From a phage: DNA of 45,624 bases. Location: assembly GCA_033193195.1 (NCBI GenBank), contig GCA_033193195.1_4326.1, one strand, 5' to 3'. Both the position numbers and the translations under genes were made by a program. Shown here piece after piece: positions 1-40,094 of this stretch (positions are counted from its first letter, which is position 1; every line of letters starts with the position of its first letter). The notes beneath the pieces are model-generated. The model saw only the letters and a program-made list of their open reading frames with translations, searched no databases and was not told the origin of the DNA.

Positions 1-24
1 AAAAAAACGAGAGAGGATTTCAAA

Positions 25-696
25 ATGGTTGTTTGGTCTTTATTTGATGGTTCAGGGCTGGCTGTGAAAGATTGGGCTGAGGCTGGTCACTAGTGCTACT
101 GTTTCAACTTTGATGAGTCTGACCACGGTAGTTACGGGGATTTAAATGCAAAATTTGAACATGAGAACATCACCTACGTTAATGCCTGGATAGATGGCAA
201 CTTCGACTTTGATGTGAAGCCTGATATCATTTTAGCGTTCCCGCCGTGTACGGATTTAGCCGTGAGCGGGTCAAGGCACTTTGAGCGAAAGCGACTGGTT
301 AACCATAACTTCCAGATTGAAGCTGCGGATACATGTAAAGTTGCTTTTAACTTGGCTAATAAGTACGAAGTCCCATACATGATTGAGAATCCAATCAGCG
401 TACTGTCATCACTCTGGAGAAAGCCTAATAAGACTTTCCACCCATATGAATACGGAGGCTATTTGCCGGAAGATGATTTACACCCGTTTTTTAGCGACCT
501 AATAAAGCCAAGAGACGCATATCCTAAGAAGACATGCATTTGGTATGGCAATGGGTTTAAATGGCCAGAGGCGATTCCTGTGGACGTTAACGATGGATTC
601 TCTGACCAATACAAGAAGCTTGGTGGGAAGAGTAAGAAGACAAAGGTAATTCGCAGTCTAACTCCTCGCGGTTTTGCAAAAGCAGTCTTCATAGCA

Positions 697-714: not shown

Positions 715-1012
<298 letters not shown>

Positions 1013-1013
<1 letters not shown>

Positions 1014-1948
1014 TGGCTCAGGGTATCTATATAGACCTTAATGACGGAAGGAATCCAATGACAATTACCGCAGGGATGAGGGCGTTAAACTTCGCTGGAA
1101 ACTTTAACGTTAATAGTGGTGGCTTTAGTAAGACATTCTCAATTCAGGGAAATGAAGGTGCATCACGTTTTTTAATTCCTAATAATGGTGCCTTCAGCTT
1201 CGAACTTGACAGGGGTGTTGAGGTTTATTATATAAGTGGATTTTCATCAACACCTACATCTGGGACAATCTCAATAGGTTCAGAGAATGGATATTCTGAC
1301 AGGGTCACGTCATTTTCAGGGACTGTTGTTGAGGTCTTGATGGCATCAAGCGGCCAGGGCATATACGTTGCTGATAGTTGTGATTTTGCATCAATAACAA
1401 CTGCTGGCAGGTTGCTAATATGCAAGTACTCTAAAAGGGTAACTTTTACAGGCTCATTCAATCTCCCTATTTATGGAATACCGTTCGGTAAGTGGGATAA
1501 TGATGGAGTTTCAGTTGAGTACAACGGAAGCGGCCAGCTTATTTGCACAAACATAAACACAGGAAATACTGGTGACACCCCAGGAAGTGTAACTATGGAC
1601 CTTGTGATATTTCAGATGGTTGCACCAACGCCTGGGCCTGGCATAAACATTTTCAACTCTAACAATGTTTGCACATTCTCAACATTGACAAGACCATTGG
1701 TTGTGTCTGGATTTATAAGTCTGTCAGGAAGCAATCAATACATAGGTAGTTCATACTTCCCAATACTTAGATGTGGGTTTAACACCAGGGCGACACGTGC
1801 TTACAAGGAGTTGCGAAATAAGGGAATTGTTATGTCCGGTGGATACGTTAGATCTGGTACTGGATCAAGGATTGTGAGATACGAGATTGGTAATAGACCA
1901 GATGTAACCATATCAACTCCATTGCCATACTTGCCTGATATGTATTAA
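1013..1948 (+). CDS. hypothetical protein (beta-rich, Gly/Ser-rich)
   Basis: ATG 1013 overlaps upstream stop (TAATG) with AAGGAG upstream; track start 1004 is GTG. Confidence 0.45.
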
Positions 1949-17342: not shown

Positions 17343-17375
17343 TAAAATCCATCGAATTCATCTTTCATCCTCATG

Positions 17376-18104
17376 TTATGACTCCCAATCCGGCACAGCC
17401 CAACAACGACAGCCGTATTCCTGACCAGGGAAGAGATCGTTACCGCCCAACCTGAAGCTTAGGCCCTCTTTCTTGAAATGGGTCATTCGCTCCCTTTCAT
17501 CAAGCATGCCGTGCCAAATGTAATGGGTAACACCAGCATCCTCTAGCCTCCTGCGCATGAACGTAGAGTTAATACTGGACGTGATGCCTGAGGCTATATT
17601 AGCAGTTCTCTTGCGGTAAATCTTGTACCTTTCGTTAATCTTAAGGTAGTCACCACTCTGTATGATTGATGCAGACTGAATAAAGTCGTCCTTGATATTG
17701 TTGAGTAACTTTTCAACGGACTTATTTGATGTGTAAAGCCACTGGTTTAAATCCGGCTGATACCAATCTTCATCTCCATTTATACCGTTAAGTCTCAAGT
17801 CCATAACTGACTGAACCGAGCCGCCACCGGTCTTGATTGCCAGCACAAGAAACTGCGATGAATTATACCTGTATATTGACGCTCCAATTGCCGGAAGTGT
17901 AGCTACAACAGAAGCTATAAGCGCTGCTATGATTGCGTCGAGATAATTATCTTCCTGCTCTAGCTCCTCGGCAGTGTCAATCTTAAGCCGCGTAGCTGAT
18001 TCTTTCATTGCAGATATTAGCTCAGTTACCGCAACGCTAAGGTTGCGGTTTACCTGATTCTCAATTGTCTGCGGGTACTTCCAGCGGGTCTTCACTGGTT
18101 TCAT
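17376..18104 (-). CDS. minor head / head morphogenesis protein
   Basis: position directly after portal gene. Confidence 0.45.
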   Translation of the reverse strand: MKPVKTRWKYPQTIENQVNRNLSVAVTELISAMKESATRLKIDTAEELEQEDNYLDAIIAALIASVVATLPAIGASIYRYNSSQFLVLAIKTGGGSVQSVMDLRLNGINGDEDWYQPDLNQWLYTSNKSVEKLLNNIKDDFIQSASIIQSGDYLKINERYKIYRKRTANIASGITSSINSTFMRRRLEDAGVTHYIWHGMLDERERMTHFKKEGLSFRLGGNDLFPGQEYGCRCWAVPDWES

Positions 18105-19365
18105 TGATTGTTACCTCTGTCTCAATTGAACCGTCACCAATCTTAACCTCAGGGGCTAATGCGCGCAAGGTATCTCGTGCTTCGTCTGCATCCATCACGC
18201 CGTTAGTGATAAGAGCAGTAATTGAATCAACGTTATTCTTCAGTGTTTCAGCGCGGTCTTTCTTCGATTCCTGAGCTAGAGGGTTAAACTCAACTGACCA
18301 TTCTTGCTCGGTTGTGATGAACGGGATTAAGAACCCAAGAACTGGAAGTAGCTCTTCGTTACGCTTGCGGTCAATCAACTTATGGAATGTCTCTAGCGCT
18401 GTGTTTTGGCTAGATGATAACCCGCCAACGTTACGACCCTTGAGAATGATTTCATGGATACCGCTCAGAGCAACAATTCTGTCGAACTTCTTATCGAGGA
18501 ATCCATCAATCCCACCAATATCCGAGTTAAGAACGCTGTACTCTTCAGCTTCAGCGTCGATACCAATCGCGCGACCAACGCCAGAGTTATCATCAACCTG
18601 GGCAAGCCTCAACCTGGCCGCACCAAAACCTTCCGCGTCGTCACACAGTTCAGCAAGGCCTTTAGCCTTCCACACCGCCTGCTGCTTGCGGCGCAATAAC
18701 TGAGTTGCCAGTTTCTCACACGTCTGATAATCCTTGATTGATTCAAGCAGGTCAGGAACCAGAACGCTAGCACCCCACCCGTCATTACCGCGACGCAATG
18801 AACTAGGAATCTTCTCGCCATCCATAATGTGAACTCGCGAGTAGTGCACATCATAAAACATGGCGCCACCTTCTGGCGTGATGCGGTACGTTAATGGCTT
18901 ACCGAATCGCACATTGCGAGGGTTTTCCTCCTTAGTCTGAACTCTTACCTGGCTACGCTCATAAACGCGAAGTGATTCAAGTTCCGCGCCTTCACGTACC
19001 GGGCTGGTTAGCGCACGATTGTCCTTAACGATAGCCACAATTGCAGAGCCGCCAAATAACCTCGCCCATGACCATGCGTCAGAGATTGACTCGTTAACCT
19101 TCAGGTAATCCCACCTGGACCAGAATTCACCTTCGTCATCAATACCATCGATATGGAAACCTGCGGCGATTGCTGTCTCCGGTATGGTGTCGACGATGCG
19201 GCGTACAATTGAGTTTGATGCGTACAGTGAATCAGCGAAAGGAGGTGTAAGATACGTGTTGCCAAAGTGCCCGTAAATCTCGCTACCATCACTGGGGCCA
19301 CCAAGAAATTGCGTGGCGTATGAATCTGCTTTTACCATTTTATTTGCTCCAATAAAAAGCCCCAT
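18061..19365 (-). CDS. portal protein
   Basis: 434 aa, downstream of terminase large subunit in packaging module. Confidence 0.7.
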   Translation of the reverse strand: MGLFIGANKMVKADSYATQFLGGPSDGSEIYGHFGNTYLTPPFADSLYASNSIVRRIVDTIPETAIAAGFHIDGIDDEGEFWSRWDYLKVNESISDAWSWARLFGGSAIVAIVKDNRALTSPVREGAELESLRVYERSQVRVQTKEENPRNVRFGKPLTYRITPEGGAMFYDVHYSRVHIMDGEKIPSSLRRGNDGWGASVLVPDLLESIKDYQTCEKLATQLLRRKQQAVWKAKGLAELCDDAEGFGAARLRLAQVDDNSGVGRAIGIDAEAEEYSVLNSDIGGIDGFLDKKFDRIVALSGIHEIILKGRNVGGLSSSQNTALETFHKLIDRKRNEELLPVLGFLIPFITTEQEWSVEFNPLAQESKKDRAETLKNNVDSITALITNGVMDADEARDTLRALAPEVKIGDGSIETEVTINETSEDPLEVPADN

Positions 19366-27705: not shown

Positions 27706-29289
27706 ATGTTTGATTTCAACGAAGATAAACTATCTGTTGAGCAGGTTATGGCAATCGCTGCCAATGAAAACCTACCACCGCTTCGCGTGGCTATTAATGC
27801 CAATGGCTATCGACATTCTCAATCGTTCTGGAAAGCACCTGTCGAGATTGATACAGGTAATGATAAGTATCCAGTAATCTCACTCGGTAATGATATTGAT
27901 GTTGTTGGTAAGCTATCGGCTAATATCGCTCGCTCGGTTCAGTTCCCTGAGTCGTCAGCTTACATGCACTTTCTTGGTTGTGTTTCTGCTGCAATGCTTG
28001 GGCGTTTTACTGTCGAGTATCATGGAACCCAACAGCCAACATCTTTGTACGTGGTAACAAGTCAGCCGCCTTCAACTGGTAAATCAGCCATTAACTCGCT
28101 ATCAATTGCGCCGATGATTGCTGAGACTGAGCGGTTGAATAAAGTACGTAAACGTGATCGAAAAAAGATTATTGCTAAACTGTCCGCTCTGGCTAAAGAG
28201 ATGAAGCAGGAGAAATCACCTTCTGAAATGGCTTCACTTTTTGAGGAGAAGGAGGATTTAGAGGAGAAGCTCGAGAAGCTATGCGATATAGTATTCCCTG
28301 TCTCCGATACTACTCCGGAAGGTCTTGCGCGAATCAACAATCGCCAGGGTAATTTTGCGGTAATCTCTGATGAGGCTACTAGCGTCAACTCACTGTTAGG
28401 CATGACTTACGGTGATGGCTCGAAGAAAACGAACAGCGAGCTCGTGCTGAAAGCATGGGATGCAGGTAATGTGTCAATTGCCCGTGCGAACGCAGAAAAT
28501 AACATGAGCTTTGTGGCTATGGGATGCATCTCCGTAATTGCTCAGGATGAAACAATCAATGCCATTATGAATGCTGGTGCGCGTGGTATTGGTGTATCTG
28601 AGCGTTTCCTTCTGGTGCGTGAAAAATCATTTCTTGGCGAACGTGTATTTGTTGATGAAAATGGTGATTCAACCTATGAGGCTATTGATGACGGCCTGAA
28701 AGCAGACTATTTCCGTCTTGTTCATGAGATTATGAATGAAGTTGAAGTGAAACTTACTGTAAGCGCGTCATCAATGCGTTACCTTAACCGCGCTCGTCAA
28801 GAGATGGAGCCTCATCTTGGTGATGGTGGCAAGTATTCTCACACAATGTTGCGCGGTGCTCTTGGTAAGTTTGATAAGCAAGCAATCCGCATCGCTTCTG
28901 TTCTGCACGTAATTCGTAACTGGTTCTCACCAGCCGGATCCAGCCCTCAAAAGTCAAGAGAGATTGAACTGGATACAATGCAGGAAGCGGTTATGATTTT
29001 CAACGAACTAAGCAAGACTTATTTATCATCCGCTAGTGCTGCTGGTCATGCTGGTGACAATGCCGAGATGAACAAGCTGGTTGATATCCTGATTAAGCAG
29101 GGCAAGAATGGTAAAGGTGTTGTTGGTGTTCGCTCGTTGTATGAGGCTGCACGCAAGGTTAAACCTTTTGAAGCTCAGGCTGGAATTATGACTCGCATTA
29201 AGGACCACTTGATTCCTATGCTTGATGAGAAAAACTACACATGCCTGATTGGTGATAAAATTTACATTAATCCACTATTGCTGGGGTAA
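27706..29289 (+). CDS. P-loop NTPase, possibly replication-associated
   Basis: QPPSTGKS Walker A-like motif, 527 aa. Confidence 0.5.
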   Translation: MFDFNEDKLSVEQVMAIAANENLPPLRVAINANGYRHSQSFWKAPVEIDTGNDKYPVISLGNDIDVVGKLSANIARSVQFPESSAYMHFLGCVSAAMLGRFTVEYHGTQQPTSLYVVTSQPPSTGKSAINSLSIAPMIAETERLNKVRKRDRKKIIAKLSALAKEMKQEKSPSEMASLFEEKEDLEEKLEKLCDIVFPVSDTTPEGLARINNRQGNFAVISDEATSVNSLLGMTYGDGSKKTNSELVLKAWDAGNVSIARANAENNMSFVAMGCISVIAQDETINAIMNAGARGIGVSERFLLVREKSFLGERVFVDENGDSTYEAIDDGLKADYFRLVHEIMNEVEVKLTVSASSMRYLNRARQEMEPHLGDGGKYSHTMLRGALGKFDKQAIRIASVLHVIRNWFSPAGSSPQKSREIELDTMQEAVMIFNELSKTYLSSASAAGHAGDNAEMNKLVDILIKQGKNGKGVVGVRSLYEAARKVKPFEAQAGIMTRIKDHLIPMLDEKNYTCLIGDKIYINPLLLG

Positions 29290-29292
29290 TTT

Positions 29293-29628
29293 ATGTACCT
29301 GCTCGACCTGTATAATTTCTGCGAAGGATACAAGAACTTCAACCGCCAGCACCTGGCAAGATTCATCTATAAGCACAAGGATTGCGCAAGGATGGCCAAG
29401 GCTGCCGGGGTTGATGAAAGGTATTTTGCCTCAAGTTGCTCGAAGGAGTTTATGGCGAGAATGCTTACGGCTGGGTATCTTGATGGAGTTAATGGAGTGT
29501 ACTGGTGTAAGGGTTCAATTAAGCGACCATTTCAGTTTGAATTCATGAGCCTTGAAGGTAGGTCCAGTGATTACGTCAGTGAGATGATGAACATAGCCAA
29601 CATGAGTGATGACGAATTGTTTGCATAA
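29293..29628 (+). CDS. hypothetical protein
   Basis: 111 aa ORF. Confidence 0.5.
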   Translation: MYLLDLYNFCEGYKNFNRQHLARFIYKHKDCARMAKAAGVDERYFASSCSKEFMARMLTAGYLDGVNGVYWCKGSIKRPFQFEFMSLEGRSSDYVSEMMNIANMSDDELFA

Positions 29629-29632
29629 AAAT

Positions 29633-29660
29633 AGCCCCATTACGGGGCTTTTTTGTTTTT
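29633..29660. terminator. bidirectional terminator between convergent units
   Basis: AGCCCC-ATTA-CGGGGCT followed by T6GT5. Confidence 0.65.
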
Positions 29661-30026
29661 CCTGAATATCATTAAGAGCAGAATGATGATGACGCAAAAC
29701 ATGATTCCACTCCCAATCCACGGGATTGCAGACGAATCATTGTTGGTGATTTCAATCTTCTCAGCCGTGATTGTTGATGCCTTGATTGAGTTATCAGAAG
29801 TCTTTTTACCGCTTGAACTATCAAGAGTGTCAACCTTAGAGTTCTTCACTTCAGCCTTTGCGCTGGAACTTGAATCAACCTTATTAGTTAGCCCTACTCC
29901 AACCTTGTTATTCTCCGCACCTGCTTGAGCGCTAATCTCTGGCTTACTACCAATCAACCCGGTCAGCGCATGAGTTGCCGAGCAACCAGAAAGTATAATT
30001 ACCTCAGCAATTAACGCAGCCTTCAT
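29640..30026 (-). CDS. candidate unimolecular spanin (lipoprotein signal + C-terminal TMD)
   Basis: N-term lipobox ILSGC, C-term hydrophobic IPWIGSGIMFCVIIILLLMIF, adjacent to endolysin. Confidence 0.55.
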   Translation of the reverse strand: MKAALIAEVIILSGCSATHALTGLIGSKPEISAQAGAENNKVGVGLTNKVDSSSSAKAEVKNSKVDTLDSSSGKKTSDNSIKASTITAEKIEITNNDSSAIPWIGSGIMFCVIIILLLMIFRKNKKAP

Positions 30027-30508
30027 TTACCCACCCCACTTAAGCATAATTTAATCTCCTCGTTGCGCCTGTTAACTAGACCTTTAACAACTTTTAGCTT
30101 GCCATTTACTCGAGCTTTATTCCAGGAGGCGAGAGCATTACAACCCTCTTCAATCTTGCCCTGATTAATCAGCCTTACTGCCGTTGACTTCCTCATTGCA
30201 GCGCCACCAACGTTGTAGCTAAAGCTGATTAACGCCGCCCTTGTCTGTGGAGAGATTGGGTAAGTTACTGCATCCTGCACATACTTTCCATGAATCTGGA
30301 TGTGTTTCTCCAGTAAGTTCCTGCACTCCCTTGCACTGTACTTTTTACCCCACACCACATCAGGACCAGTGATACCTGAACAAACCGTAGGAATGCCTGA
30401 AATGTCCATGTAAGGCTTGTATTCCACACCTTCTACTAGCTCAATAATCGGCGCTGCGATGTATATTGCTGCTGCCGTCGCTGCACTAATTACCAGCTTC
30501 TGCTTCAT
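30023..30508 (-). CDS. endolysin, lysozyme-like with N-terminal SAR-type segment
   Basis: weakly hydrophobic Ala/Gly-rich N-term; E-x8-D-x5-T catalytic spacing. Confidence 0.75.
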   Translation of the reverse strand: MKQKLVISAATAAAIYIAAPIIELVEGVEYKPYMDISGIPTVCSGITGPDVVWGKKYSARECRNLLEKHIQIHGKYVQDAVTYPISPQTRAALISFSYNVGGAAMRKSTAVRLINQGKIEEGCNALASWNKARVNGKLKVVKGLVNRRNEEIKLCLSGVGK

Positions 30509-30723
30509 TACTTACTCCTAATATTGATAGCTGTTTTTAAATCTCCTGACTCTAGCGCTTTCCTGATTGCCTGACTGTCCTTAAACTTCCAATATGCTCC
30601 CCACAGCCCGAAAACAACAAGAGCCACAAGGCTGATTATTGCTATAGTCATTTGACCAGTTGCGGCACCAGTTACAGCGGCTCCGCCGGTTGATGCCGTG
30701 GCGGCGTTAATTACTTCCCTCAT
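30508..30723 (-). CDS. holin candidate
   Basis: 71 aa from ATG 30723 with GGTGA SD; one strong TMD; TAATG overlap with endolysin. Confidence 0.55.
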   Translation of the reverse strand: MREVINAATASTGGAAVTGAATGQMTIAIISLVALVVFGLWGAYWKFKDSQAIRKALESGDLKTAINIRSK

Positions 30724-30796
30724 GTGATCACCTTTAAATCCTAATTTGTCAATACATAGTGCAAATATCATACATTAGGCGGTGGCAAATTATAAG

Positions 30797-30824
30797 CAAA
30801 AAAAGGGGAGCCAAAAGGCCCCCC
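30797..30824 (-). terminator. hairpin plus T-run
   Basis: GGGGGGCC-TTTT-GGCTCCCC then T7 on minus strand. Confidence 0.5.
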
Positions 30825-30850
30825 GCATGCAAATCTATGTTTTTGATGTG

Positions 30851-31024
30851 TTAATCTTCGATAATAAATTCCACCAAAGAGCCATCAATCGGCGCAAGGA
30901 TGTGAGTCATATCGTCACCGTAAACTTTGTAGTAACCGTCACCTAGAGACTCTGCGCTGTACGGCTGGTTTTCGGTGAACGGCAGTGTCTTTGAGTTGTT
31001 TTTAACGCAGTATAATTTAGTCAT
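30851..31024 (-). CDS. small hypothetical protein (57 aa, not in track)
   Basis: ATG 31024 after GAGGA; family promoter upstream. Confidence 0.4.
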   Translation of the reverse strand: MTKLYCVKNNSKTLPFTENQPYSAESLGDGYYKVYGDDMTHILAPIDGSLVEFIIED

Positions 31025-31055
31025 TTTTGAATCCTCTGTTGTTTTCGATGTAGTA

Positions 31056-31100
31056 ATTATGCCGGATTACTCCGGCGATTGTTTAGCAATTCGTGCTATT
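31056..31100 (-). promoter_or_regulatory. family promoter overlapping 3' end of dNMP kinase gene
   Basis: minus-strand AATAGCACGAATTGCTAAACAA, CATAAT, leader CATCGAAAACAAC. Confidence 0.5.
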
Positions 31101-31637
31101 GATTGCACTAATTACTTTTTCTGAAGTTCTTTTAATATCACCTTCAATAACATCAACATCAATCTCTCTTGCGCAGACGCAACTAAGGTATGACCTACTA
31201 TCTCCTTCGAAAGTATAACCAGGTCTGTGAAGCCTAATCAATGTAACCTCAACACCGTTGCCAATCAGTGGTTCGATTTCACTCGCAAATCCACCGTCTG
31301 AACAAATGTAGCATCCATCACCAAGTGATTGCGCTAGCCTTTTACCGAAAACATCATCACCAAAGACTGGCTTCATAACTGACTCACTAATCCAAATCAT
31401 AAATTCACGAACCGTCATTCCACCAAGAAATTCATGTGGTGATTCTTTGTACTCTCGGTCATCGTAATTCTTAATAAATTCATCAAACTCATCGCTTGAT
31501 AGTATTCCTTTTGCAACATTAAACATTGGTGACTTGAATGAAACCTTATCCTTGCAAATTCCAAGATTAACAATGATATCTGCAACTGTATCTTTTCCAG
31601 CACCAGGGGGTGCATTAAGGATGATTAACTTTTTCAT
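31083..31637 (-). CDS. deoxynucleoside monophosphate kinase-like P-loop kinase
   Basis: ILNAPPGAGKDT Walker A; start 31637 with GGAGA; ends ..NSTNC inside promoter element. Confidence 0.5.
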   Translation of the reverse strand: MKKLIILNAPPGAGKDTVADIIVNLGICKDKVSFKSPMFNVAKGILSSDEFDEFIKNYDDREYKESPHEFLGGMTVREFMIWISESVMKPVFGDDVFGKRLAQSLGDGCYICSDGGFASEIEPLIGNGVEVTLIRLHRPGYTFEGDSRSYLSCVCAREIDVDVIEGDIKRTSEKVISAINSTNC

Positions 31638-31638
31638 T

Positions 31639-32112
31639 TTATTCTCCGTGAGATTCGCAGTCCTTTGGTAATTCTTTATATTCACAAACTGACATTACAG
31701 TATATCCGCAATTCCTTAGGTGACTGATAACATTAGGATTATCCTCAAAGATTATCACACTTGCTTTGTCACCATTACACAAATCATTTAGCCACATCTC
31801 TTTAATGATATAGTCATTTCTGTTATCCAATCTACTCCTCATATATATTCCATCATAATTAATATTATTATACTGAAGCCATTCAAGCGTCATACATTCG
31901 ACTTCGTCACTTCTTGAAGTCATGATGTAAACTGGCGATAACTCAGCTAACGCATTCATCATGTTTATCATTGGAATTATCGGTGAATCTCCAGAACAGG
32001 CTCTATTGTAATCACTCCAACTTGAAGTCAAGTGAAGGTCACTAGATGGTAATAGGTGGCTTCTATGTTCATTGTTAGCAATAGTTCCATCAATATCAAA
32101 CACGTAAATCAT
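31639..32112 (-). CDS. HAD-family 5'(3')-deoxyribonucleotidase-like
   Basis: N-terminal FDIDGTI (DxDGT) motif. Confidence 0.55.
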   Translation of the reverse strand: MIYVFDIDGTIANNEHRSHLLPSSDLHLTSSWSDYNRACSGDSPIIPMINMMNALAELSPVYIMTSRSDEVECMTLEWLQYNNINYDGIYMRSRLDNRNDYIIKEMWLNDLCNGDKASVIIFEDNPNVISHLRNCGYTVMSVCEYKELPKDCESHGE

Positions 32113-38680: not shown

Positions 38681-38694
38681 TTGGGGAGAAGAAA

Positions 38695-39174
38695 ATGAAC
38701 TGGCATGATTATTTTTACTATGTAGATGGCAAATTGCATTGAAAGATTAGCACTGCAAGACGTGTTAAGGTTGGCGATGAGTGCAACTCACTATCTACAT
38801 CTGGCTATTACAAAGTGTCTGTTAATGGCTTTAGGACTTATGTACATAGAGTTGTGTGGGAGATGTTTAATGGAGAACTTCAAAATGGCGACTACATTGA
38901 TCATATAAACCATAACAAATTAGATAACAGAATAGAAAACCTAAGAGTAACAACAAATCAAGGTAACTCAAGAAATTGCAAGCTTAGCGTTTTATCAACA
39001 ACTGGTTATTGTGGAGTGGCAAAGCTAAATCACGGAAAATTTAAGGCTTACATCAAGGTTGACGGCAAGCAGCTACACCTTGGTAACTTCGATACTCCAG
39101 AGCAGGCGTATAAAGTAAGAATTGAAGCAGAGAGAAAATACAACTTTCACGAAAATCACGGTTTAAGCAAATGA
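38695..39174 (+). pseudogene. HNH-AP2 homing endonuclease-like gene with in-frame TGA at 38740..38742
   Basis: MNWHDYFYYVDGKLH-stop-KISTARRVKVGD (Trp expected in G.L.WK motif); HRVVWEMFNGEL..DHINHNKLDNRIENLR HNH; YCGVAKLNHGKFKAYIKVDGKQLHLGNF AP2-like; GGGAGA SD. Confidence 0.65.
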
Positions 39175-40094
39175 ATTACGATAAGAATGAAGTTATACCT
39201 AAGATGGCCGGATTGTGGAAATCATTTTATGCAAAGGAACTTGGTTGGAATGATAGACACCTAAGTAAGAAGCACGGACCATGCCCATACTGCTTTGGCA
39301 CTGACAGATTCAGATTTACCGACGAAATAGGCAGTGAAAAAGGAAATGGCGCGGCAATTTGTTCGAAATGCGGAAGTGACTCCGGTATAGGGTGGGTCAT
39401 GAAGTGCACTGGATTGTCCTTCGCCGATTCAGTAAATTTGCTTGGTGACTGGCTGAACTTAACACCAATTGAGGTTATAGTTAAAGCTAACAAGCAAGCA
39501 TCAAGAACGCTGCGTTATAAAATGGGCGCTCAAGTAGACCACAAGAAAGTTCTTGAGGTCATGAAGAGGACTCAGCGAGTTGAATCTAGTCCACTCACGA
39601 CATACGAGGGTATTTATGACGAGTTTGGTTTTGATGTTGGTATAGCTAAAAATGGTTCAATGATTCACGCAATCCCTTGTTCGATGGTTTATGAAGATGG
39701 GCTTAGTGATGAGTTCTGTAACGTAATGTTTATTGATGAGGATTCAAATGTTAAGTTCCTTGCTGGTGATTACACTCGTGATTCTGTTTCCGTTATTGGT
39801 TCTAAGCAGGATGATAGTTATACTTATGTTGTTGACAATTATATTGATGGCATACGTGTTCACCTTGCTACTGGTGGGCGCGAAGTGTTTGTTGCTTTCT
39901 CCTGTTACAATATGGAGATGGTTATCCACCGAGACAAGTCAAGGAAGTTCAGAATTGCTTGCCGTGATTCTGATATCGATATCCTTGCTGTTGCTGACGA
40001 TAGGTGTGTTGATGTGGTGATTCCTAACGACGGTAAGTCATTTAAAACAGGCATACGAAAGAAAGTGTACAAAGCCAACGACTTGCTAAACTAA
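39171..40094 (+). CDS. DNA primase (zinc-ribbon + TOPRIM-like)
   Basis: HGPCPYCFGTDRFRF..CSKCGSDSG zinc-binding pattern; acidic D.D and DG motifs in C-terminal half. Confidence 0.6.
   Translation: MNYDKNEVIPKMAGLWKSFYAKELGWNDRHLSKKHGPCPYCFGTDRFRFTDEIGSEKGNGAAICSKCGSDSGIGWVMKCTGLSFADSVNLLGDWLNLTPIEVIVKANKQASRTLRYKMGAQVDHKKVLEVMKRTQRVESSPLTTYEGIYDEFGFDVGIAKNGSMIHAIPCSMVYEDGLSDEFCNVMFIDEDSNVKFLAGDYTRDSVSVIGSKQDDSYTYVVDNYIDGIRVHLATGGREVFVAFSCYNMEMVIHRDKSRKFRIACRDSDIDILAVADDRCVDVVIPNDGKSFKTGIRKKVYKANDLLN

Follow-up and report, generated by a model that had tools for sequence, protein, structure and literature searches.

At the centre of the locus analysed here lie three consecutive minus-strand genes for a holin, a SAR endolysin and a unimolecular spanin (u-spanin). 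The window (the whole stretch of DNA that was analysed, 45,624 nucleotides) is the complete genome of a T1-like E. coli phage of the family Drexlerviridae, subfamily Braunvirinae. The earlier note, made from the letters of the sequence, had placed a compact lysis cassette at 29640-30771, and the list of open reading frames for 28500-32000 has three minus-strand reading frames at precisely that location. The genes had been described as overlapping, which holds, with overlaps of merely 1 nt between holin and endolysin and 4 nt between endolysin and spanin: the holin stop and the endolysin start have one base in common (TAATG), and the endolysin stop and the spanin start have four (ATGA). Comparison with relatives gave dN/dS values of 0.05-0.10 for all three genes, and this strong purifying selection identifies them as real genes. 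Together they form a self-contained unit of about 1.2 kb flanked by two intrinsic terminators (Table 1).

Table 1. Coordinates of the lysis cassette and its flanking features, in order of position along the window.
Feature	Residues	Position	Strand	Description
Bidirectional intrinsic terminator		29633-29649	both	Common to the spanin gene and the convergent plus-strand gene 29293-29628
u-spanin gene	1-128	29640-30026	-	128 aa, T1 gp11 family; starts MKAALIAEVIILSGC
Spanin C-terminal TMD	~103-121	29664-29720	-	Followed by the basic tail RKNKKAP
Spanin periplasmic domain	16 to ~102		-	No Cys
Spanin lipobox LSGC	Cys15	29982-29984 (Cys15)	-	Ser16 at +2
Spanin lipoprotein signal peptide	1-14	29985-30026	-	
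Spanin Glu8	8	30003-30005	-	GAG, midway along the signal-peptide hydrophobic core (10 residues)
SAR endolysin gene	1-161	30023-30508	-	161 aa, GH24 muramidase
Endolysin catalytic residues	E26; D35; T41	30431-30433; 30404-30406; 30386-30388	-	
SAR domain	5-22	30443-30496	-	LVISAATAAAIYIAAPII; Ala-rich, hydrophobic, 50% A/G/S/T
Holin gene	1-71	30508-30723	-	71 aa, T1 gp13 homologue; charged C-terminus
Holin TMD2	25-45	30589-30651	-	Clear, Kyte-Doolittle 2.34
Holin candidate TMD1	4-23	30655-30714	-	Weakly hydrophobic, 80% A/G/S/T
Leader		30724-30804	-	81 nt; cassette promoter expected here
Leader motifs		30794-30789; 30772-30767; 30752-30747	-	TATAAT; TATGAT; conserved TTGACA
Upstream terminator-like hairpin		30805-30824	-	GGGGGGCC-TTTT-GGCTCCCC and a run of seven T; between the DUF7244 gene and the holin gene
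DUF7244 (SH3-clan) gene	1-57	30851-31024	-	57 aa, T1 gp14 homologue; just upstream, beyond the terminator

Nearly all of the 85 records matched when the cassette region was compared with phage genomes by megablast were Escherichia siphophages. The closest were Escherichia phages ES (OR466728) and AN_ECEAS (PP944860), with 97.9% nucleotide identity over 100% of the query, followed by TR1, TR2, TR3, phiA2-1 and IME542 with 83-87% identity to the cassette region; all seven are classified in the Drexlerviridae, Braunvirinae. The AN_ECEAS genome, in reverse orientation, is collinear with the window along most of its length. Over the cassette, ES and AN_ECEAS differ from the window at 16 nucleotides, and four of the affected codons alter the protein: A13V and S37A in the endolysin (window residue first), and E8A and H19S in the spanin, where the window has E8 (GAG) and H19 and the two relatives have A8 (GCG) and S19. 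In their records the spanin gene is labelled ‘hypothetical protein’, while for TR1, TR2, TR3 and phiA2-1, at 84-87% identity, the existing annotation reads ‘holin | lysozyme | u-spanin’ or ‘unimolecular spanin’. Furthermore, the exact cassette proteins are already public, both in an Escherichia coli assembly (NCBI HEF0535423-5, on a 45,654-bp contig) and in a Logan contig from run DRR502069. The cassette is thus already known, a textbook T1-type arrangement with near-identical sequenced relatives.

The first gene matches PHROG 2877 ‘holin’ (profile search, E 1e-36) and aligns with T1 gp13 at 54% identity across all 71 residues (pairwise BLASTP, E 2e-29), and the public 71-aa gene call carries the Pfam family PF27028 (Phage_T1_holin). 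The identification of this gene as a holin was therefore upheld, but its proposed start at 30771 was not, the conserved start being the ATG at 30723. Both the PHROG 2877 profile and the T1 gp13 alignment begin at residue 17 of the 87-aa reading frame (30508-30771, ATG 30771), and a good Shine-Dalgarno sequence, AAAGGTGAT (about 30735-30727), precedes ATG 30723. In phages ECH1 and PaulSarasin the extension is interrupted by an in-frame stop just upstream of the equivalent ATG, and in the alignment the conserved ‘IDK’ codons of the extension coincide with a conserved DNA hexamer, TTGACA. In the public annotation of the same contig the holin is likewise called at 71 aa. The 87-aa frame was rejected as a mechanical maximum, its extension showing no conservation at the coding level, and a holin/antiholin pair made from two starts was rejected on the same grounds. 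Some database records lengthen the holin to 87-97 aa.

Neither the holin nor the spanin was assigned a family in a search of a local copy of Pfam-A; weak matches to TatA_B_E (E 0.12) and Glyco_hyd_101C (E 0.16) were disregarded as chance. The topology of the holin is clear for its second transmembrane segment. The first candidate segment averages only about 0.8 in hydropathy, below the transmembrane threshold, and this stretch rich in small residues could be a SAR-like TMD1. The T1 gp13 family has been labelled as pinholins in the literature (PMC6139136; PMC13164509). The features of the window holin are consistent with that label and are no proof of it.

The second gene encodes a GH24 muramidase with strong matches to PF00959 (Pfam-A, E 1e-34) and PHROG 7 endolysin (profile search, E 4e-49), and with 48% identity to T1 gp12 (pairwise BLASTP, E 6e-47). 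The top PDB matches in a phmmer search were RrrD (4zpu, E 2e-27) and phage 21 R (3hde/3hdf, E ~1e-26). The SAR-like N-terminus noticed earlier was found again, with K2 and K4 preceding the hydrophobic stretch (Kyte-Doolittle maximum 1.85), and the noted E-x8-D-x5-T spacing occurs exactly once in the protein, at E26/D35/T41. These three residues are invariant among seven homologues. The alignment to R21 and RrrD begins within the SAR domain, at residue 11, and keeps the EG...D...T motif in register. The endolysin has no Cys before residue 43, leaving its SAR domain Cys-free, which excludes disulfide caging as in P1 Lyz and places the enzyme with the R21 type. A18-A19 is the sole small-residue pair in the N-terminus and is followed directly by Pro20. 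A proline at +1 blocks signal peptidase I, and the N-terminus is consistent with a SAR domain whose predicted non-cleavage follows from Pro20 after the A-A site.

The third gene encodes the 128-aa product in which the earlier note had recognised both a lipobox and a C-terminal transmembrane segment. Both are present: the lipobox is LSGC, its cysteine being Cys15, and the C-terminal region holds a strongly hydrophobic segment (19-residue Kyte-Doolittle maximum 2.74, within residues 97-125). The unimolecular architecture assigned to the product was likewise borne out, with both anchors on one protein and homology to T1 gp11 (37% identity across 118 residues, pairwise BLASTP, E 1e-23). Residues 4-125 are covered by PHROG 1804 ‘Rz-like spanin’ (profile search, E 2e-45). 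In alignments of the spanin L12, G14, C15 and S16 are invariant, and the +2 residue is a Ser, not an Asp, which predicts sorting to the outer membrane. The only cysteines are Cys15, predicted to be lipidated, and Cys111 within the TMD. An AlphaFold2 model built from a 35-sequence alignment (pLDDT 54, pTM 0.21) contained just the signal-peptide and TMD helices, with the C-terminal helix spanning residues 102-126 (pLDDT up to 85); gp11 has been reported to have a beta-rich periplasmic domain, and residues 25-101 of this model, at its low confidence (pLDDT 54), are without strands. No embedded or overlapping o-spanin frame was found in the other frames of the ORF list, and among minus-strand ORFs of at least 30 aa within 29640-30771 no other combined a signal sequence with a lipobox. 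A two-component spanin of the Rz/Rz1 type was rejected, there being no separate o-spanin gene among these ORFs.

Spanin homologues were found by tblastn in 1,123 phage records, mainly Klebsiella and Escherichia phages. A family set of 134 members, assembled from a cluster look-up and a homology search, showed the lipobox as LSGC in 108 and as LTGC in 18; Ser stood at +2 in 129 of the 130 members with a recognised lipobox, all 134 had a C-terminal TMD, and none had a periplasmic Cys. These family features match the published description of u-spanins (PMC6139136), which, unlike two-component spanins, have no periplasmic cysteine. In that study T1 gene 11 is described as the prototype unimolecular spanin, complementing the lysis defect of lambda Rz/Rz1 (Kongari et al., 2018; PMC6139136). 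The T1 gp11 family was the largest u-spanin family, in which all members but two shared their cassette with a pinholin and a SAR endolysin. Judged by its sequence, the 128-aa protein is a routine member of this family, the largest known among u-spanins, and the records of close relatives already describe the protein as such.

Homology to the T1 lysis genes and the expected sequence features back the combined reading of holin, SAR endolysin and u-spanin, and we put the probability that this is the standard lysis cassette of a T1-like siphophage, predicted to comprise a gp13-type holin, a SAR endolysin and a gp11-type u-spanin, at about 0.93. Several homologue records label the third protein merely as ‘lipoprotein’ or ‘hypothetical protein’, as might be expected if it were some other phage lipoprotein, for example a superinfection-exclusion protein of the Cor/Llp type whose C-terminus is hydrophobic by chance. 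We give this alternative next to no credence, given full-length homology to T1 gp11, which complements a lambda spanin defect (PMC6139136), the position of the gene as the last of the lysis cassette, translationally coupled (ATGA) to the endolysin, and the presence of a separate short lipoprotein ORF, a likely Cor-type candidate, beside the tail genes at 783-1013. Somewhat less remote, and still very improbable, is a conventional large-hole holin working with an endolysin whose N-terminus is cut off as a signal peptide or serves as a permanent anchor, in place of a pinholin and a SAR endolysin. Only one holin segment passes the standard hydropathy threshold, and the T1 record describes gp13 with a single TMD. 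On the endolysin side, however, the N-terminal segment is half A/G/S/T and free of Cys, the catalytic Glu follows it directly as in R21, the R21/RrrD alignment already starts at residue 11, and the sole A-A site has the Pro at +1 that would block signal peptidase I. The T1-family cassette has moreover been classed as pinholin plus SAR endolysin (PMC6139136; PMC13164509), although neither of these papers reports a measurement of hole size for the gp13 family.

A further reading retains the T1-type cassette but takes the spanin allele of this phage to be export-defective or attenuated, with outer-membrane disruption reliant on shear or delayed, a natural spanin-weak phenotype. Glu8 breaks a signal-peptide hydrophobic core of just 10 residues, at a position where ES and AN_ECEAS and all 14 other listed members of the 90% cluster of the window spanin have Ala. 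No other protein in the set of 134 family members has an acidic residue in the core, and in no other does one stand 7 residues before the Cys; where the signal peptide is acidic elsewhere, in five other members, the residue lies in the n-region and is separated from the Cys by a stretch that includes at least 8 uncharged residues directly after it. E8 is the sole reason why the window spanin does not match a lipobox pattern of the PROSITE PS51257 type, which 129 of the 134 relatives and T1 gp11 do match. A charge within the h-region of a signal peptide is a classical cause of impaired Sec export, which favours an attenuated spanin, and export and lipidation of this protein may be less efficient owing to Glu8. 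On the other side, some short lipoprotein signals tolerate polar residues. The E8 allele is, in addition, present on four assembled contigs, so that it is probably no one-off assembly error, and since one of the four is a full-length 45.6-kb genome, the phage that carries it replicates. Phages do not need spanins in shaken culture when divalent cations are lacking, and viability is therefore neutral with respect to a spanin defect. On balance we consider the attenuated reading unlikely, and the standard T1-type cassette described above is preferred.

The Glu8 allele could provide an inexpensive natural experiment on how much hydrophobic core is required in the signal peptide of a u-spanin. Were the allele fully functional, export and lipidation of a gp11-type spanin could proceed with an h-region divided into runs of 5 and 4 hydrophobic residues; were it defective, this would be a spanin-attenuated T1-like phage in natural circulation.

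The boundaries of the unit are of interest in relation to its upstream neighbour. At the downstream end, the stem of the bidirectional terminator overlaps the final spanin codons and stop codon. The upstream hairpin has 8 pairs, 7 of them GC, and an RNAfold energy of -19.1 kcal/mol. Seven phages belonging to three subfamilies have a hairpin with a T-run at the equivalent place, the stem being one of three unrelated sequences, and this retention despite unrelated stems argues that the terminator is functional; the lysis transcription unit probably has its upstream limit at this hairpin. A sigma-70 promoter scan returned 4 sites against 3.1 expected from shuffling, none of them in the holin leader, and by eye the TATAAT, TATGAT and TTGACA motifs of the leader did not make a convincing -35/-10 pair.

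Beyond the hairpin, the DUF7244 protein matches PF23896 over positions 1-57 of its 57 residues (E 6e-28) and is 40% identical to T1 gp14. The Drexlerviridae lysis module has been proposed to include, in an accessory role, this standalone SH3 (DUF7244) protein (Eremina et al., 2026; PMC13164509). In this phage its membership in the cassette appears uncertain. The protein is without any export signal, and together with the conserved terminator this argues modestly against a direct role in lysis; the 2026 proposal, which makes the SH3 protein a member of the lysis module, should be read with this terminator in mind. The joint reading, in which the Glu8 allele is functional or attenuated and the terminator and the lack of an export signal speak against a lysis role of the SH3 protein, is put forward as a doubtful one.

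For the steps that go beyond the gene structure, homology, motifs, topology signals and terminators established here, namely timing, hole size, lipidation and fusion, we infer the course of lysis, with the order of events taken from characterised prototypes. The 71-aa gp13-type holin, treated here as a pinholin, would build up in the inner membrane and then trigger, collapsing the membrane potential. The endolysin would by then have been exported by Sec and kept inactive by its uncleaved N-terminal SAR helix; upon depolarisation this helix would exit the bilayer, and the GH24 domain would refold as in phage 21 R and degrade the peptidoglycan. The gp11-type u-spanin, anchored in the outer membrane by the lipid on Cys15 and in the inner membrane by its C-terminal helix, would thereby be freed from the peptidoglycan mesh and could draw both membranes together, disrupting the outer membrane, probably by fusion. 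Outer-membrane disruption by u-spanins has been modelled as membrane fusion (PMC6139136). The consequence of the present analysis is mainly one of annotation, the appropriate names for the three genes being holin (T1 gp13 family, 71 aa), SAR endolysin and u-spanin (T1 gp11 family).

Compared with known systems, the cassette is closest in organisation to that of phage T1 (NC_005833, 42878-43982), in which gene 13 (holin), gene 12 (endolysin) and gene 11 (‘Rz-like spanin’) stand in the same order and are equally tightly coupled. Protein lengths in the window and in T1 are 71 and 71 aa for the holin, 161 and 162 aa for the endolysin, and 128 and 133 aa for the u-spanin. T1 gp11 and the window spanin have in common the LSGC lipobox, Ser at +2 and a C-terminal TMD, and T1 likewise has a terminator at the 3' end of gene 11 (both annotated and detected) and, upstream of the cassette, the gp14/DUF7244 gene with a terminator hairpin. 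The two phages differ in subfamily (Braunvirinae for the window, Tunavirinae for T1), in the spanin periplasmic domain, which has diverged, in Glu8, which is specific to the window allele, and in what lies upstream of the DUF7244 gene, where the window has kinase genes and T1 an HNH endonuclease.

The likeness to phage 21 (S21-68 pinholin/R21) lies in the pairing logic of a small holin with a SAR endolysin, and R21 is homologous to the window endolysin, with the same catalytic triad and a Cys-free SAR domain. The spanin of phage 21, in contrast, is a two-component Rz/Rz1 system, whereas the window has one gp11-type protein. P1 Lyz is also a GH24 SAR endolysin, with E-x8-D/C-x5-T spacing. It needs its SAR-domain Cys to un-cage the active site by disulfide isomerisation; this Cys is absent from the window endolysin, and P1 Lyz was not among the PDB matches of that protein, the foremost of which were RrrD and R21.

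The u-spanin of this phage differs from those of its nearest relatives within the signal peptide, where position 8 is occupied by Glu (GAG) as opposed to Ala (GCG). Among the 134 gp11-family members examined, only the u-spanin of the window had an acidic residue in the signal-peptide core, and the Glu8 allele was present on 4 public contigs. This substitution may weaken export of the u-spanin. Atypical lipoboxes (LYGC, LFGC and LPGC) were also observed in some gp11-family spanins (members P0087, P0089, P0117 and P0136), and the DTL spanin in RefSeq (L005 1513-1875) begins MCVALSGC, its signal peptide having been shortened because the start was called too late.

Features in and around the lysis cassette and near the start of the window
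Feature	Position	Strand	Remarks
76-aa ORF	783-1013	+	lipoprotein signal (12 protein letters not shown); adjoins tail-fibre gene
314-aa ORF	1004-1948	+	adjacent to 76-aa lipoprotein ORF
u-spanin codon 8, Glu8 (GAG)	30003-30005	-	within hydrophobic core of lipoprotein signal peptide
TTGACA hexamer	30747-30752	-	23-24 nt 5' of holin ATG
Terminator hairpin	30805-30824	-	between DUF7244/SH3 gene and holin
DUF7244/SH3 gene	30851-31024	-	57 aa; T1 gp14 homologue; directly upstream of holin
P-loop kinase-like protein	31083-31685	-	200 aa; GTG start; weak AAA_18 matches only
HAD-type polynucleotide kinase/phosphatase domain protein	31639-32112	-	PF25109, E 9e-15

Near-identical T1-like lysis genes were filed in database records under Campylobacter phage, Pseudomonas phage, Aeromonas veronii and Nitratidesulfovibrio liaohensis, and the window's own proteins are sourced from an E. 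coli isolate assembly. This distribution of records is what would be expected of T1-like phages occurring as laboratory contaminants.

Upstream of the holin, the TTGACA hexamer was kept in six of seven aligned phages, with T1 as the exception. The 87-aa ORF, the longest mechanical reading of the holin gene, has a spurious N-terminal extension, and the hexamer falls within it; a search for a matching -10 element found none. Braunvirinae, Tempevirinae and T1 all keep the structure of the hairpin that separates the holin from the DUF7244/SH3 gene, built from three different stem sequences. An accessory lysis role was put forward in 2026 for the DUF7244/SH3 protein (PMC13164509), which showed no signal sequence in this phage. 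The two kinase-type genes upstream of the SH3 gene overlap each other; kinases and SH3 are reported to occur together in only seven Drexlerviridae genomes (PMC13164509).

Near the start of the window, the 76-aa ORF is likely to encode a Cor-type superinfection-exclusion lipoprotein. By blastn, the closest relative, AN_ECEAS, had no match to the neighboring 314-aa ORF, to window positions 1-696 or to 1075-2001, and 17343-18122 and 38683-39440 likewise lacked a nucleotide match in that phage. The latter two stretches might represent variable accessory genes, or else alleles free of homing endonucleases. Compared with AN_ECEAS, the window is approximately 2.5 kb shorter.
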